Sequence record: OQ108497.1
DNA length: 64,000 nucleotides
Reading direction: 5' to 3' (one strand)
Source of the DNA: Escherichia phage EC_OE_11
Part shown: positions 21,098-55,148 of the stretch, one piece after another
How positions within the stretch are numbered: position 1 is the stretch's first letter
How the letters are laid out: each line of letters begins with the position of its first letter
Made by a program: the position numbers and the translations under genes
Notes under the pieces: model-generated
Told to the model about the DNA's origin: nothing
The model's database searches: none
Seen by the model: the letters and a program-made list of their open reading frames with translations, nothing else

Positions 21098-22072
21098 TTA
21101 AAGACTTTCAATAACTTGACGACGCAGTTCATTGGCATCTGCAAGATTATAATTAAGACGAACGTGTTCTGCAAGCATCATACCACGATCTTCTGTGTAT
21201 CTAGGGTTTCTCATTAGCTTAACAACTTCATAATGCCAAGATGCTTTAGAGTCTGCATAGATAACAGCCTTTGCATCTACCGGATTGAAGTACGGCAGCA
21301 CAGGAGAACAGATAATAGGAAGACCCTTTGCACCTGCTTCCAAAATCTTCAAATTGCTTTTACAATTGTTGAAGTCGTTATCTACCAGAGGAGCAATTGC
21401 AATACTGTGACCGTCATACACAGACATATACTCACCTAAATTTTTAATAGCTGGTTTATACTGTGCATTTGGAATTTTACGTTTTACTTTAACCCACTCC
21501 GCAGTAGTTAGATACTGACTATTATTTCCAACAGGTGCAGAAGGATACACTTCATACCCTGCAATTGTCAATAGTGTATCATCAAATGTATTAGCTACAA
21601 GAGATAAATCAGGCTCATGGCTTGCTCCTCCAGCCCAAATAATAGGTGTGTCAGAATAACGGTCTTTTGTCAAAGTAAATTGACCTTCGTCGTAAGGTAG
21701 TGCGTTTCTAATAACGACAACATTACGATTTAAATGACGAATTTTGTAAGCTAGGTATTCTGTTGTTACTGTAACAACATCTGCTAACTTAACCATCTCT
21801 ACAATAGTCTTTGAATGATTAGTAAATACGCCAGCCATATAATGTTCAGGATTAAGTGAATAAAAGTCATCTAAATCAACAATAATCTTAACACCTTGTG
21901 CCTTCAGGCGTTTAACTTCGTCTGCCCCATGAGAATACACTCTATTAAAAACTAAAACGTCTTTCTTAGGTTTAAACGTATTTCCAGCAAATGGCATTAC
22001 AATACGATGGTAATCACAACCACTGCCTAACTTATTATCACACTTAAGTACAGGAGTATTAGGATTTACCAT
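21098..22072 (-). CDS. glycosyltransferase-like protein (GT-B-like), paralog B
   Basis: Start moved to ATG at 22072 (MVNPNT) behind GAGGAGG RBS (ORF track extends to 22111); aligns with paralog A including KILEAGAKGLPIICSP. Confidence 0.4.
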   Translation of the reverse strand: MVNPNTPVLKCDNKLGSGCDYHRIVMPFAGNTFKPKKDVLVFNRVYSHGADEVKRLKAQGVKIIVDLDDFYSLNPEHYMAGVFTNHSKTIVEMVKLADVVTVTTEYLAYKIRHLNRNVVVIRNALPYDEGQFTLTKDRYSDTPIIWAGGASHEPDLSLVANTFDDTLLTIAGYEVYPSAPVGNNSQYLTTAEWVKVKRKIPNAQYKPAIKNLGEYMSVYDGHSIAIAPLVDNDFNNCKSNLKILEAGAKGLPIICSPVLPYFNPVDAKAVIYADSKASWHYEVVKLMRNPRYTEDRGMMLAEHVRLNYNLADANELRRQVIESL

Positions 22073-51174: not shown

Positions 51175-52347
51175 ATGGTAGCACTAAAATCATGGGAACA
51201 ATATAAAGAAGAATTAATACCCCTTGCTAAAAATCACAATATTCAAATCTTGGGTTATGTTGGTGAATGGAAAGGGAACAAGACTAAACTTAAGCTATCT
51301 TGCCCTAAACATGGAGAGTGGAACACCACGAACATTAATGATTTTAAGAAGGGACGTGGTTGTCCTATCTGTTCTGGTAAGAAGCCGTTAACATGGGAAA
51401 CAGAATTGCCGATCTTGGAAGAGATAGCACAGAAGAGGGGGTATCAGGTGTTAGGGTACGTGGGAGAATGGAAAGGGAATAAAACAAAACTTGATTTGTT
51501 GTGTCATTGTGGTAATAAATGGGATACTACAAGTATTAACAATTTTAAACGTGGTAGCGGTTGTCCACAATGTAAGAGGGAGAGACAAACAATGTCCGAC
51601 GATCAACATATTGCAGATTTCTTTTCTACAGGGGAATTTAAGGAAGGCACTATCTTCACCAATACAGGGAAACGTAACAAGCGTGATGCAGTATGGATGG
51701 TTGAGTGTCCTGTTTGCTCCCATGATGAATATGTTCAAGCAGGTGTTTGTGATGGTAAATTTTACTCTGCAGGACATAACCTTAAACAAGGGTATATTCC
51801 GTGTCGTTGTGGGAACTATCAGTATACAGAAGACCAGATCACCTATAGGGTAAAAAAGGAAGTAGAAGGGAAAGGGTATGTCTGGGTAGATTGGATTACC
51901 AAACCCTCTTCTATAGGTAAGTTTAAATATCTTTGTCTTGTGCATGGTGAGCAGATAGGGAGTGCTCGTAATTTATTAAGCCTCGGTCAAGGTTGTCCAC
52001 AGTGTGCTGGTCATAATCAACAGCAATTATATATTAATATTGTTAAAGATAATGATATTATAGTTGCTCTTAAGTTTGGCATAGCTAAAGATAGTGACAG
52101 GCGATTAAACAATCAAAATAGGCGTAATATGTTTTTTATGGAGCGTATTTGTTTATATGATTTTAGTACAGTGAAACAGTGTAAGGCTGCTGAAAGAGCT
52201 ATAAAGAAAAAACTAAAAACTGGTATTTTAACAGCAAGAGAGTTGAAAGATGGTTATACAGAAACAGTAAGTGTTTCTGATTTGGAAAATCTTCAAAAAA
52301 TTATTACACAATATGGTGGCAAGTTAGTATACAGTAAGGAGGTGTAA
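51175..52347 (+). CDS. zinc-ribbon repeat protein with C-terminal T5orf172/GIY-YIG-like domain
   Basis: 390 aa; two near-identical modules (GYVGEWKGNKTKLxLxC ... GxGCPxC) plus more CxxC pairs; C-terminal LKFGIAKDSDRRL resembles the T5orf172 family. Confidence 0.35.
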   Translation: MVALKSWEQYKEELIPLAKNHNIQILGYVGEWKGNKTKLKLSCPKHGEWNTTNINDFKKGRGCPICSGKKPLTWETELPILEEIAQKRGYQVLGYVGEWKGNKTKLDLLCHCGNKWDTTSINNFKRGSGCPQCKRERQTMSDDQHIADFFSTGEFKEGTIFTNTGKRNKRDAVWMVECPVCSHDEYVQAGVCDGKFYSAGHNLKQGYIPCRCGNYQYTEDQITYRVKKEVEGKGYVWVDWITKPSSIGKFKYLCLVHGEQIGSARNLLSLGQGCPQCAGHNQQQLYINIVKDNDIIVALKFGIAKDSDRRLNNQNRRNMFFMERICLYDFSTVKQCKAAERAIKKKLKTGILTARELKDGYTETVSVSDLENLQKIITQYGGKLVYSKEV

Positions 52348-52899
52348 ATGCGGATTACTGATAAGTATGTGTTCTTCTTCTCGGCAAAAGATGAATTTAG
52401 CAACTGGTATCTATCATCTTTTATTGAACCTTTAGCTCCCAAGTATAATAATTCTATTACAAGTTCTGTTGAATTTACTTGTGTGGAACAATATATGATG
52501 TGGAGAAAAGCATGTTTGTTTTATGATTACAACATTGCATCTTCTATTTTAACCGGAGATCTAAGATATACAGGAGAAAAAGAACAGGCATATTATAAGC
52601 GACTAGGTAGATTAGTTAAAGATTACGATGAAGCTACTTGGACTTCTTTACGGGAGAAGATTGTCAAGCGTGGTTTGTATCTTAAATACACACAAAATGA
52701 AGATCTCAAAAATAAACTTATAGCTTACGCAGATAAGGAGTTTGTAGAGGCAAGTCCTTATGATTCTATTTATGGTATCAAAATGGGGATGTGGGATCGG
52801 GACGTGGAAAATAAGGATTGTTGGAAAGGACAAAATCTTTTAGGAAAATGGCATACAGACCTTGCTGTTTATCTAAAATCACAATCTGATATTTCCTGA
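52348..52899 (+). CDS. NADAR-domain protein (YbiA-like, DUF1768)
   Basis: 183 aa; motifs FFFSAKDEFSNWY, EQYMMWRKA, LGR and YDSIYGI match conserved NADAR blocks (compare E. coli YbiA FYS ... FSNF, EHYFQAQKF). Confidence 0.65.
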   Translation: MRITDKYVFFFSAKDEFSNWYLSSFIEPLAPKYNNSITSSVEFTCVEQYMMWRKACLFYDYNIASSILTGDLRYTGEKEQAYYKRLGRLVKDYDEATWTSLREKIVKRGLYLKYTQNEDLKNKLIAYADKEFVEASPYDSIYGIKMGMWDRDVENKDCWKGQNLLGKWHTDLAVYLKSQSDIS

Positions 52900-53110
52900 T
52901 ATTTTGAAAATTTTTACTTTTATAAAAAGGGGTGTGGGTTTCATGTACGGAAATCCACCCTCTGAATAATATATCCAGAGTAAATATTATTCTGTACTCT
53001 GTTAATAAAGTATTTAATTTGTTTGTTGGACTATGGTATCTGATCTTTAAAAGGCATACTATCTCTTAACTACTATTTATAACAGAACAGTAAAATCATT
53101 TTTATAAAAA

Positions 53111-53320
53111 GGACAAAATTATTTAAAGTTTTTACAGATTTTTGGATACAAATTTTGAAAATGAAAAGTTCAAGTTTGGTCAAAATTATTTAAAGTTTTT
53201 GTACGTATTTCTATCCAGATTTTGAAAATGAAAACTTCAATTTTTTAAAAATTCCCCAGTTTATTTAAAGTTTTTTTGCCTTTTTCCGTAGAAAAATCAA
53301 AAATGAAAAGTTCAATTTCG
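53111..53320. repeat. three tandem ~70 bp AT-rich direct repeats (iteron-like)
   Basis: Each unit has ATTATTTAAAGTTTTT (at about 53118, 53184, 53260) and TTTGAAAATGAAAAGTTCAA (at about 53152, 53220, 53296); no ORF across 52900-53340. Confidence 0.6.
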
Positions 53321-53335
53321 TGTTTTTATAGGTGT

Positions 53336-53460
53336 GCGTATGATAATCATTCTCATTTGTAAATGAGAATCATTATCATTTAATTATGTAAGTGATAATC
53401 ATTCTCAGTAAGAGAATGAGAATCATTAGCAAATGAGAATTTTTCTCATTTAGAGAATAA
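53336..53460. promoter_or_regulatory. cluster of Fur-box-like palindromic operator sites
   Basis: TGATAATCATTCTCATT, AATGAGAATCATTATCATT, GTGATAATCATTCTCA, GAATGAGAATCATTAGC and the perfect palindrome AAATGAGAATTTTTCTCATTT; close to the enterobacterial Fur consensus GATAATGATAATCATTATC. Confidence 0.45.
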
Positions 53461-53684
53461 CGCGCAGGGGTGGTGTTTGTCTCGCGCTCCCGTGTCCCTC
53501 GCCATACAATAAGAATAGCATAACCAACAACAAAAGCAAGCGATTATTTTTATCTTTACATTTCTTTACAAATTTATTTTAGACGAGCTACCGGCGATCA
53601 ACCTTCCAACCAGTGCCCCTGGTATGTTAGCCCCGCCTTTACGCCGTGGGGGTGGCGCTTCCTCTTCTGTATGTAAAACAGTAT

Positions 53685-53724
53685 AAGCCCGATCCCTGGG
53701 CTTGTCAAGATTATTTTTTGTTTT
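53685..53724 (+). terminator. candidate rho-independent terminator in GC-rich island
   Basis: AAGCCCGATCCCTGGGCTT hairpin followed by TTATTTTTTGTTTT. Confidence 0.35.
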
Positions 53725-54087
53725 CTTGCCAGGAAAGGACACCTAACCAAAAATACATATCGCCCCGCGCCCCTGGCGGGATCTTGCTTTCCCCGCCGCC
53801 ACTGCAAGCCCATAAATAACCATCAGCGAACGGATCAAAATGTTCTATCTCTTCCACCTTATGATCGCCCAGGTTGAGAACGGTTTCAACCTTTAAGCCC
53901 GTTGCGCTTGCTACCTGGTGCACCGTGCCGCCTTGCCAGCCCAATGAGTGCATGAGATGTAAAGGAGTATTTGTCATGGTATCGCCCTTTCTTTGATGTG
54001 CGCCCTGGTTGGCGCGGTAGAAAGATAATAGCCGTTTCCTTTATAGATAGCAAGCAAAAAGAAATGAAAAAAAGATTAAAAAATGGT

Positions 54088-54116
54088 TGACGTTCCTCAC
54101 CTGGTAGCGTAGTATT
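54088..54116 (+). promoter_or_regulatory. sigma70-like promoter
   Basis: TTGACG - 17 nt - TAGTAT. Confidence 0.4.
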
Positions 54117-54242
54117 CATCTTGTCGAGGGGGGCAAGGCACAACGACAATAAACAATAGGCGGGTGCAATGCAGGACGGGCAAAGGTGAGGATCTCCACA
54201 ATCCACCGTCACAATAACATTACTTATAAAAGGTTGATAACG

Positions 54243-54338
54243 ATGATCAAGAAAGAAAACAGCTTGACGGTTGGAACGATTAACGCTATCATTCTAGCCG
54301 TTCCATTTTGGATTGTAGTAGCGGTTGTTATTTTCTAA
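54243..54338 (+). CDS. small hydrophobic peptide (31 aa)
   Basis: MIKKENSLTVGTINAIILAVPFWIVVAVVIF; AAAAGG upstream; about 120 nt structured leader from promoter at 54088. Confidence 0.3.
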   Translation: MIKKENSLTVGTINAIILAVPFWIVVAVVIF

Positions 54339-54347
54339 AAAATATTC

Positions 54348-54405
54348 TTGACAACGTTTTTTAATCTGATAAGATGTATCACATAGGGCGGCAATAGTGC
54401 CGCTC
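54348..54405 (+). promoter_or_regulatory. early promoter with leader hairpin
   Basis: TTGACA (54348) - 16/17 nt - TAAGAT, then CATAGGGCGGCAATAGTGCCGC hairpin about 25 nt before ATG. Confidence 0.5.
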
Positions 54406-54427
54406 ATAACAGAAGAGAGAAATAATC

Positions 54428-54700
54428 ATGGCATCATATAGCGCATCAATGATCGTAACGGGCATGACTGGTAAACCTATGCGCGGTGGCGGATCTTTCG
54501 CTAACATCAATATTGATGGGCGTTTATCCCTGGATGCAGCGATCACCGTGGCACGGGAAACATTTAAAAAAGAATGTAATTTCAATAAACAAGATTATCT
54601 CGGCTTCGTTATTGAAAAAACCGCGCGCTTTGTTGATTATAAAAGCCCGAAAATGATCGACACTACACTAAAAGCGCAAGATGTAGCATTTTTGCTTTAA
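54428..54700 (+). CDS. hypothetical early protein
   Basis: 90 aa ORF behind promoter-hairpin and AGAAGAGAGA RBS. Confidence 0.4.
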   Translation: MASYSASMIVTGMTGKPMRGGGSFANINIDGRLSLDAAITVARETFKKECNFNKQDYLGFVIEKTARFVDYKSPKMIDTTLKAQDVAFLL

Positions 54701-54703
54701 GGC

Positions 54704-54763
54704 TTGACACTGAAAAATAATTTAGTAATATATACCACATAGGGCGGGAAATGGTTTCCCGCC
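54704..54763 (+). promoter_or_regulatory. early promoter with leader hairpin
   Basis: TTGACA - 16 nt - TAATAT, then GGCGGGAAATGGTTTCCCGCC hairpin. Confidence 0.5.
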
Positions 54764-54785
54764 AAATCAAAGAAAGGGTAACACA

Positions 54786-55148
54786 ATGAGCAAGCAAATC
54801 AATACTATCATGTTAAACCTGGTATCTTTCCGCGATGACGTGAAAAATCTTTCGCGTGATGCAGTGGATGCACGGATCGAAAGCTATCGCACACAGATCG
54901 CGACATTACCGTTAAAACGTGATCAACATGCCGCTAATATGATGCTTGATGCTATGATTAAAAAGATGATTCAATGTGATCTTACCCTGGCTTATGAATA
55001 TGCTGGCGATCTTTTTGTAACGTATAATAAACCCGTTCCAGGTATGAGCACCACGGAAGAATTGCATGCCTTAAATCTGCGACAAGATGCATGGGATAAC
55101 ATGCGCCGTGTTATGGTATGGGTAGAAAGCGGTAAAATTTACGAATAA
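54786..55148 (+). CDS. hypothetical early protein
   Basis: 120 aa ORF behind promoter-hairpin. Confidence 0.4.
   Translation: MSKQINTIMLNLVSFRDDVKNLSRDAVDARIESYRTQIATLPLKRDQHAANMMLDAMIKKMIQCDLTLAYEYAGDLFVTYNKPVPGMSTTEELHALNLRQDAWDNMRRVMVWVESGKIYE

Follow-up and report, generated by a model that had tools for sequence, protein, structure and literature searches.

A conserved non-coding block with three iteron-like repeat units in Escherichia phage EC_OE_11 and related phi92- and rV5-like phages: a candidate replication origin

Introduction

What is the function of three tandem direct repeats in a non-coding region of Escherichia phage EC_OE_11 that is rich in adenine and thymine (AT)? This question is raised by positions 52900-53335 of a 64,000-nucleotide stretch of this phage (sequence record OQ108497.1; the whole stretch is called the window in the following), for which an original prediction, made from the sequence alone, had proposed an iteron-like candidate origin of replication or a packaging or regulatory site beside palindromes resembling Fur boxes. 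We know of no description of the replication origin or of the early regulatory circuitry of rV5-like and phi92-like phages, and for this phage there is neither an annotated initiator nor a mapped origin.

The window belongs to a Justusliebigvirus (phi92-like, subfamily Stephanstirmvirinae). A query of 2.5 kb around the repeat array matched 145 phage records, the best of which (97-98% identity) were the Escherichia phages JohannJBalmer, PaulScherrer and alia of the genus Justusliebigvirus, and the window is collinear with alia 23.0-88.3 kb except for a small inverted segment. In GenBank, the locus is annotated as 'repeat_region' without name or function in alia (NC_052655.1, 76984-77109) and in inny (MN850601.1, 126161-126286). 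This annotation covers units 1 and 2 of the array, while unit 3 and the surrounding block are unannotated; in other records the locus is blank or carries tiny hypothetical open reading frames (ORFs). Beyond this unexplained annotation, a literature search yielded no published account of the locus.

The results exceed the original prediction. The repeats most likely form a lineage-specific protein-binding module of a conserved modular non-coding control block that is shared by two phage subfamilies. A replication origin with transcriptional activation is tentatively regarded as the best single reading of this block and as a plausible candidate function.

Three tandem units in exceptionally AT-rich DNA

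The three tandem repeats are real, as the array was recovered by Tandem Repeats Finder (53114-53244, period 67, 2.0 copies, 82% matches, score 185), by a repeat search within the window and by box matches. The repeat search delivered three copies at 53098-53176, 53165-53243 and 53240-53318, which are 71-73% alike and start 67 and 75 bp apart. The tandem arrangement claimed before thus stood, whereas a uniform unit length of about 70 bp did not.

Each unit lies on the plus strand and contains two boxes: unit 1 (53114-53180) with box A at 53119-53133 and box B at 53154-53173, unit 2 (53181-53255) with box A at 53186-53200 and box B at 53221-53240 (one mismatch), and unit 3 (53256-53330) with box A at 53261-53275 and box B at 53296-53315. 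Box A, TTATTTAAAGTTTTT, occurs exactly at 53119, 53186 and 53261, and the only other site with up to two mismatches in the 64 kb is a single two-mismatch site at 21100. Box B, AAAATGAAAAGTTCAA, is exact at 53158 and 53300 and has one mismatch at 53225; the chance expectation for its matches is 0.33, and three or more were obtained in 0 of 100 shuffles. In the complete genome of alia, both boxes were found nowhere outside the array. The fixed spacing of the boxes was confirmed, with 39 nt from the start of box A to the start of box B in all three units, although the 5' part of box B differs in unit 3 (ATCAAAAATG...). Behind box B, the 3' part of unit 2 additionally harbors a T6A5 element, TTTTTTAAAAATT (53241-53253, plus strand).

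A fourth partial copy, which had been suspected near 52909, turned out to be merely the 11-mer ATTTTGAAAAT at 52901, which is common to units 1 and 2 and sits within a separate conserved element with two copies of GATATTT (52888 and 52898).

The absence of ORFs holds in the sense that matters, since the region contains just two mechanical ORFs of 45 and 36 amino acids (aa); the unit spacings (67 and 75) are not multiples of 3. With a guanine plus cytosine (GC) content of 0.18-0.21, the array is the least stable and most AT-rich DNA of the 64 kb at scales of 60, 100 and 230 bp. The three lowest 100-bp GC windows all lie inside 53071-53392, and the 230-bp minimum is 0.21 at the array versus 0.28 at the next-lowest locus.

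Conservation of the array in Stephanstirmvirinae and Vequintavirinae

A sensitive search with the 441-bp repeat region detected 55 near-identical Justusliebigvirus records and, at about 70% identity and for the repeats only, Citrobacter phage Tr1 and the Klebsiella phages KP2025 and phi1_175008. The apparent matches at two places per record were due to the array aligning with itself at an offset and did not represent a second locus. Among the Stephanstirmvirinae, the loci of Tr1, KP2025, phi1_175008 and phAPEC8 were compared by reading. For the Vequintavirinae, PVP-SE1, BIS47, CR9, phiTE and Hena1 were used together with BLAST-filtered loci from IMG/VR: a scan of this database with a 15-mer from the GC-rich core described below gave 86 stretches, and 16 IMG/VR loci were true homologues after the BLAST filter. 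When IMG/VR was scanned with box A alone, nothing was found beyond chance single matches of this AT-rich 15-mer. In plasmids and E. coli chromosomes searched for homologues, solely the Fur palindromes matched, namely in Moraxella plasmids.

The order of elements is the same in the Stephanstirmvirinae. The end of the upstream gene is followed by GATATTT repeats, by AAAGGGG(T/C)G (AAAGGTG in phAPEC8), by about 150 nt of variable sequence and by the three units; rightward of the units follow Fur-like palindromes, a GC-rich stretch, a minus-strand consensus promoter and a variable small minus-strand gene. Alignment of the 15 units of five lineages gave TTATTTAAAgtTTTT, about 20 uninformative positions and AAAA.cAAAAtTTAAA.TTt. 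In each of the five lineages, successive units start 66-67 and 72-76 bp apart. Judged by eye from the aligned units, unit 3 is closer to unit 3 of other phages than to units 1 and 2 of its own array. Because units at the same position are alike across phages, the triplication is most probably old and each unit has been kept individually. In the lineages other than Justusliebigvirus, the core of box A recurs at the end of box B (ATTTAAAGTTT), 46 bp behind its first copy, and the array therefore comprises six related sites. A T/A palindrome and a short C-rich run before unit 3 are also kept, with variations, in the five lineages; the run reads CCCCAG in this phage and in Tr1.

In the Vequintavirinae, three tandem units are again located upstream of Fur-like boxes, in most cases with a Tandem Repeats Finder period of 67. 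The first box of the units depends on the lineage. It is TTATTTAAAG in the Stephanstirmvirinae, a GATC-centred palindrome, GGTTCTCGATCG, in Seunavirus, Mydovirus and Vequintavirus (PVP-SE1, BIS47, 4MG, Av-05), GGGTCTCGATCG with extra copies in Certrevirus (CR9, phiTE) and GACTTGAGRGG in Henunavirus (Hena1). Behind this box, the Vequintavirinae have TTTTTCAAAAT(C)GAAAAC, a sequence similar to TTTTGAAAATGAAAAG in box B of this phage, and then GAAAAAATTTTT; the TTTTTCAAAAT-type box and an A6T5 element are retained. Altogether, three units at the same place and with the same spacings were found in about 20 lineages of two subfamilies despite diverged unit sequences. The unit architecture consequently predates the split between Stephanstirmvirinae and Vequintavirinae.

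On a shorter time scale, seven close Justusliebigvirus genomes were compared. None of 108 box positions was variable in comparison to 6 of 109 in the rest of the array (Fisher p = 0.03), and variable columns amounted to 24 of 151 in the spacer 52963-53113, 6 of 217 in the whole array and 6 of 220 in the core. As judged from these substitution patterns, the boxes are evidently under purifying selection.

The arrays of the two subfamilies differ in base composition and in GATC content. Extreme AT-richness is a lineage-specific and not a conserved property, as the Vequintavirinae arrays have a GC content of 32-52% and contain short A/T elements only. They contain 3-7 GATC per approximately 205 bp versus 2-7 per approximately 1270 bp of flanking sequence, a clustering that recalls oriC and P1 oriR; in the Stephanstirmvirinae arrays 0-1 GATC occur.

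The surrounding non-coding block

Judging from the aligned loci, the array is part of a non-coding block of about 0.8 kb that is kept in every Stephanstirmvirinae and Vequintavirinae lineage examined and forms a syntenic anchor. The flanking protein genes turn over between lineages while the block persists, which fits an indispensable cis element.

Rightward of the units, a cluster of five Fur-box-like 7-1-7 palindromes, TGAnAATnATTnTCA, extends from 53336 to 53448 and was recognized by its consensus match; the palindromes are spaced 29 bp apart in relatives. Four sites in 53336-53430 match the E. coli Fur consensus GATAATGATAATCATTATC at 15-16 of 19 positions, a score that is reached nowhere else in the 64 kb, and the fifth 7-1-7 site is located at 53434. 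At a threshold of at least 14/19, 10 sites were observed compared to a shuffle mean of 3.2. The Vequintavirinae possess one to four Fur-like boxes with a spacing of 29 bp upstream of the core, and the last box stands at a fixed distance from the core in almost all lineages.

The GC-rich conserved core (53461-53680) includes the invariant direct repeat CTTTACAnnTCTTTACAAA. A query with 53440-53720 matched 245 phage records, and the central 125 nt of the core show 80-86% identity in Vequintavirinae of Salmonella, Klebsiella, Cronobacter, Pectobacterium, Proteus, Enterobacter and Erwinia. Since indels of 7, 8 and 10 nt between lineages break the frame, the core is non-coding. A hairpin in the core shows compensatory changes from CAACCAG..CTGGTATG to CGACCTG..CCGGTACG, which also distinguish BIS47 from its close relative L085, and RNAalifold predicted weak and similar structures of the core on both strands, with neither strand favoured. 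While one box of the units follows the phage lineage, the Fur-like boxes and the core are nearly unchanged; this would fit constraints imposed by host factors or by structure.

Two promoter-like sequences on the minus strand point leftward at the array. P1 (TTGACA-17-TATACT, 53708 to 53680) matches the consensus at 11/12 positions in this phage, and each of the 15 lineages has a site with 9-12/12 in the corresponding place. P2 (TTGCTT-16-TATTCT, 53539 to 53512) reaches 7/12 here, while its counterpart in 12 of 15 lineages reaches 9/12. The hexamers of both are conserved in position while the spacers diverge; the P1 spacer (17-18 nt) is a GC-rich palindrome in most lineages. The reverse complement of CTTTACAnnTCTTTACAAA reads GTAAA-N5-GTAAA (53555-53569, minus strand), is invariant in 14 of 14 aligned lineages and precedes the -35 hexamer of P2 by 8 nt. 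This motif equals the CpxR consensus, a likeness that serves as a lead only and not as a test. Altogether, 18 promoter-like sites were counted in 52300-54800, whereas 7.8 were expected.

At the left end, the GATATTT direct repeat (52886-52911, plus strand, copies at 52888 and 52898) directly follows the NADAR gene and overlaps ATTTTGAAAAT at 52901-52911. Nearly all lineages of the two subfamilies have 2-5 copies of it in the corresponding place; one copy occurs in KP2025, and none was detected in the stretch analysed for L086. Then follow, according to sequence and DNA fold, the motif AAAGGGGTGTG and an imperfect hairpin formed by GGGTGTGGGTTTC and GAAATCCACCC (52926-52960, plus strand). Read on the minus strand (52960-52920), this hairpin at 52930-52960 is followed by CTTTTTAT and might act as a terminator of leftward transcripts. 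It was not called by the terminator scan and is not conserved in the Vequintavirinae. Between hairpin and units lies a variable AT-rich spacer (52963-53113), for which alignment between genera is impossible.

A putative protein-binding array and candidate replication origin

The units were examined at the level of RNA and DNA. RNAalifold returned no pairs for the 15 aligned units on either strand, and the predicted fold of the entire array was no more stable than that of shuffled sequence (z-scores of the minimum free energy +0.7 and -0.7). Rfam 15 gave no match at the gathering score in the window, with chance-level microRNA matches on the Fur palindromes only, and a tRNA scan found nothing. 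In addition, the conserved boxes contain the DNA palindromes TTTAAA and CTCGATCGAG. Because of the lacking RNA fold, the lacking Rfam match and the DNA palindromes, the units most likely act as protein sites in double-stranded DNA, and it is very probable that they represent a functional protein-binding array. Since the box varies with the lineage while the hosts share their nucleoid proteins, the binding protein is most likely encoded by the phage and lineage-specific, and the pattern fits sites that co-evolve with such a protein. We propose to regard the array as iterons in the broad sense, with two boxes per unit of about 67 bp and six sites in total. In this respect the original prediction is well supported by the constraint on the boxes and by the three-unit architecture across two subfamilies.

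For iteron origins, a review is available (Rajewska et al. 2012, cited in PMC7145576). At least three regularly spaced direct repeats in non-coding DNA were found in this phage, as was a repeat of lineage-specific sequence and conserved architecture. The array shares these properties with ori-lambda, P1 oriR and the oriV of plasmids; as in these origins, the repeats hold small palindromes. Easily melted A/T elements beside or inside the repeats are a more ambiguous likeness, since the AT-richness is extreme in this phage but reduced to short elements in the Vequintavirinae arrays. The clustered GATC of the Vequintavirinae arrays constitute a further likeness to oriC and P1 oriR. In ori-lambda, four 19-bp repeats bound by the O protein are combined with an AT-rich region. 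In contrast to such origins, the units of the array are bipartite and 67-75 bp long instead of 17-22 bp, they have neither an adjoining initiator gene nor DnaA boxes, and their function is a candidate one only.

A second group of known systems comprises transcript-dependent origins, such as the primary origin of T7 (promoters 1.1A and 1.1B, then an AT-rich region), oriF and oriG of T4, RNA II of ColE1 and the transcriptionally activated ori-lambda. As in the T7, T4 and ColE1 type, promoters a few hundred bp away aim at an AT-rich region and a GC-rich segment precedes the target; for P1 and P2 this is judged by consensus and conservation only. Like T7, this phage encodes a T7-type primase-helicase and a Pol I-type (family A) polymerase. 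In contrast to these systems, the predicted promoters are of the host sigma-70 type and a Fur-like cluster intervenes; the repeat array suggests an extra specific binding protein, which is lacking in the origins of T7 and T4.

The array also resembles crr/ori of the satellite phage P4 and the origin of the Vibrio cholerae satellites PLE (PMC7145576), which are long non-coding regions with large direct repeats. In P4 and PLE, short initiator-binding sites lie within each large repeat, and function needs a dedicated phage or satellite protein (PMC7145576). In contrast to the alpha protein of P4 and RepA of PLE, which are identified and whose genes are linked to the repeats (PMC7145576), no protein has been assigned to the array.

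From this arrangement we infer the binding of a phage protein, the firing of the promoters, the binding of Fur and the initiation of replication. Early in infection, the host RNA polymerase would start at the minus-strand sigma-70 promoters P1 and P2. Leftward transcription would cross the GC-rich core and the Fur-box cluster and enter the array, where the phage protein bound to the repeats and the transcription together could open the easily melted DNA. The opening might then allow the T7-type primase-helicase and the family A polymerase to load, or the transcript might supply an RNA primer. Host Fur on the five boxes between promoters and array would gate this transcription.

Several observations weigh against an origin at this locus. 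No initiator-like gene (with a Rep, O or DnaA-type domain) was detected among the neighbours of the array, so that a cognate initiator gene neither adjoins nor overlaps the repeats. The DnaA box TTATNCACA was not found with up to one mismatch in 53098-53335, and its matches across the window (71 versus 100 expected) show no enrichment. The AT-richness of the array is not shared by the Vequintavirinae, and the period of 67 bp is far longer than the 17-22 bp of classical iterons. GC and AT skew near the locus do not change in the direction of a bidirectional origin and track the gene class. A check by GC skew, which had been suggested, was thus uninformative, as the minimum is located at the transcription switch at approximately 47.7-48 kb, 5 kb away. 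In rV5, the skew follows the direction of transcription, and the authors were unable to place the origin in this way (PMC3606486). The claim that the array marks a boundary between transcription blocks did not stand either; left and right of the array, the large genes are encoded on the plus strand, and the strand switch occurs at approximately 47.7-48.0 kb. At this point of divergent transcription, the segment 47752-48622 is inverted in comparison to alia 71101-72257. Finally, the accumulation of promoters and of sites resembling those of host factors fits a region of transcription control equally well.

Alternative functions of the array

The last point leads to the strongest alternative, namely that the array serves the control of transcription and plays no part in replication. 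A phage regulator bound to the units as upstream or downstream sites, possibly together with host nucleoid proteins, would switch P1, P2 or a plus-strand promoter overlapping the Fur boxes; the output would be the non-coding core or the neighbouring early genes, and Fur and the CpxR-like site would feed in the status of iron and envelope. This is a serious possibility, although a somewhat less probable one than an origin. The excess of promoter-like sites, the two conserved leftward promoters and the invariant GTAAA-N5-GTAAA upstream of P2 are in agreement with it, as are the unconserved AT-richness of the array and the lack of an adjacent initiator gene. In the Vequintavirinae, the last Fur box is moreover placed exactly between TTGAAT and CAGAAT of a plus-strand promoter (TTGAAT-18-CAGAAT), which is the classical geometry of a Fur-repressed promoter and is convincing there. 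In this phage and its closest relatives, however, the corresponding promoter is weak or absent (5-6/12 consensus). Three units of 67 bp over 200 bp would be an unusual geometry for an activator or repressor, a regulator gene is not linked to the block, and it is the block itself that is conserved while the flanking genes turn over.

It is unlikely that the array functions as RNA. In this case P1 or P2 would produce a long leftward non-coding transcript through the Fur boxes and units that ends at 52960-52920, and its three modules would bind or sponge an RNA-binding protein of host or phage, or mimic an RNA antitoxin like the pseudo-ToxI of phiTE. The conserved leftward promoters and the hairpin with CTTTTTAT on the minus strand would be compatible with such a transcript. 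Phage phiTE, which belongs to the same supergroup and carries the same block, evolves tandem non-coding RNA repeats against defence (PMC3475682). Against this stand the missing structure of the 15 units on either strand, the folding of the array like shuffled sequence and the lack of an Rfam match; palindromic boxes with freely diverging spacers are typical of protein-DNA sites, and the putative terminator at the left end is not conserved in the Vequintavirinae. Furthermore, the units of type III antitoxins are near-identical, 34-45 nt long and folded into a pseudoknot, whereas those of the array have 67-75 nt and are 71-73% alike, and no ToxI-like sequence was seen in the homologous stretch of phiTE. 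Membership in ToxI or pseudo-ToxI was therefore rejected on account of unit length, identity, structure and Rfam.

A function as pac or terminase-binding site, or as a centromere-like element for partition or anchoring in the manner of sopC or parS arrays, is highly unlikely. Tandem repeats with embedded palindromes are typical of the sites of terminase small subunits and of ParB/SopB, and the array resembles them in this respect. The motif AAAGGGGTGTG beside the array (52926-52936) has three copies in the alia genome, and the two others lie at the right-hand border of the terminal repeat that was reported for BME3 (L005 39615 and 39693). This repeat is part of a second non-coding region of 1.8 kb (alia 88120-89941; L005 38120-39941), which starts about 100 bp past the end of the window and contains several Fur-like boxes and GATATTTG; Fur-like boxes and GATATTTG are thus common to both non-coding regions. 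The physical genome ends are placed in the second region by the terminal repeat inside it. In the Justusliebigvirus BME3, direct terminal repeats of 342 bp were found with PhageTerm (PMC12210895). The annotated repeat of BME3 corresponds to alia 89280-89620, about 12 kb right of the array and just past the window end, and for Klebsiella phage phi1_175008, a second record, which is linear, begins about 13 kb to the right of the array of this phage. Since both lie 12-13 kb to the right, the array is not the genome terminus, and the packaging site considered originally is disfavoured. The terminase gene is about 70 kb away from the array, the unit boxes are missing from the terminus region, and ParA/ParB genes are not annotated nearby. 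Two GenBank records, PP357458.1 and EC.P2, start near the array; the start of PP357458.1 was rejected as a terminus, because this circular assembly was opened arbitrarily.

A reading of the array as a neutral, functionless leftover from a local duplication within AT-rich spacer DNA has next to no probability: AT-rich intergenic DNA is often similar due to low complexity, and the box A 15-mer occurs by chance in many unrelated viral contigs, but three units at the same place and spacings in about 20 lineages, invariant boxes beside variable spacers and the greater similarity of same-position units across phages contradict it.

Neighbouring genes

The candidate origin is surrounded by genes for an AAA ATPase, a CapR/T5orf172 endonuclease and a NADAR protein. 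The AAA ATPase, encoded 2 kb upstream of the array, is of the classical p97/FtsH type by sequence and was for this reason rejected as an initiator; its single-sequence AlphaFold model was unusable (mean predicted local distance difference test score, pLDDT, 39.6). The annotated 'endonuclease' of 390 aa (51175-52347) consists of three zinc modules with homology to CapR and a T5orf172 domain. It was also rejected as an initiator, as it is absent from lineages with the same boxes (Citrobacter and Klebsiella relatives), and its gene is probably a mobile insertion. The upstream genes of the Vequintavirinae blocks were excluded likewise; they are mutually unrelated and unrelated to the neighbours in this phage.

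On the other side, an ORF of 88 aa (53711-53977, minus strand; phrog_19316, no Pfam domain) separates the block from the early genes. Different lineages have different genes in this place, and CR9 has none. The early genes right of the block have near-consensus promoters of the TTGACA type, followed by a GC-rich hairpin in the 5' leader (54348-54410 and 54087-54140; also L010 2440-2500). In the record of phAPEC8, such early promoter/hairpin sites are labelled as PHIRE 'promoters'.

Implications for rV5- and phi92-like phages

Among the phages considered for therapy against E. coli, Klebsiella, Salmonella and Cronobacter, those of the rV5-like and phi92-like groups are some of the most often isolated. 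The block described here appears as a control region common to all of these phages examined and is the clearest candidate for an essential cis element in them. The lineage-specific boxes offer a direct handle for finding the binding protein by pull-down or electrophoretic mobility shift assay, and the region would be useful for engineering, for example of safe insertion sites or of replicons that depend on the phage. In view of the Fur-like boxes, the outcome of an infection may depend on the availability of iron, which would be relevant in the gut and in infected tissue.

A more far-reaching idea, which is speculative and rather unlikely, is that one master cis-locus of the whole rV5/phi92 supergroup (at least 245 sequenced virulent phages of Enterobacterales) wires Fur boxes and a CpxR-like site between host-type promoters and iterons. 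If this were true, an initiator or regulator protein of a strictly lytic phage would tie the start of DNA replication, or the main switch of phage development, to the state of the host with respect to iron and envelope.

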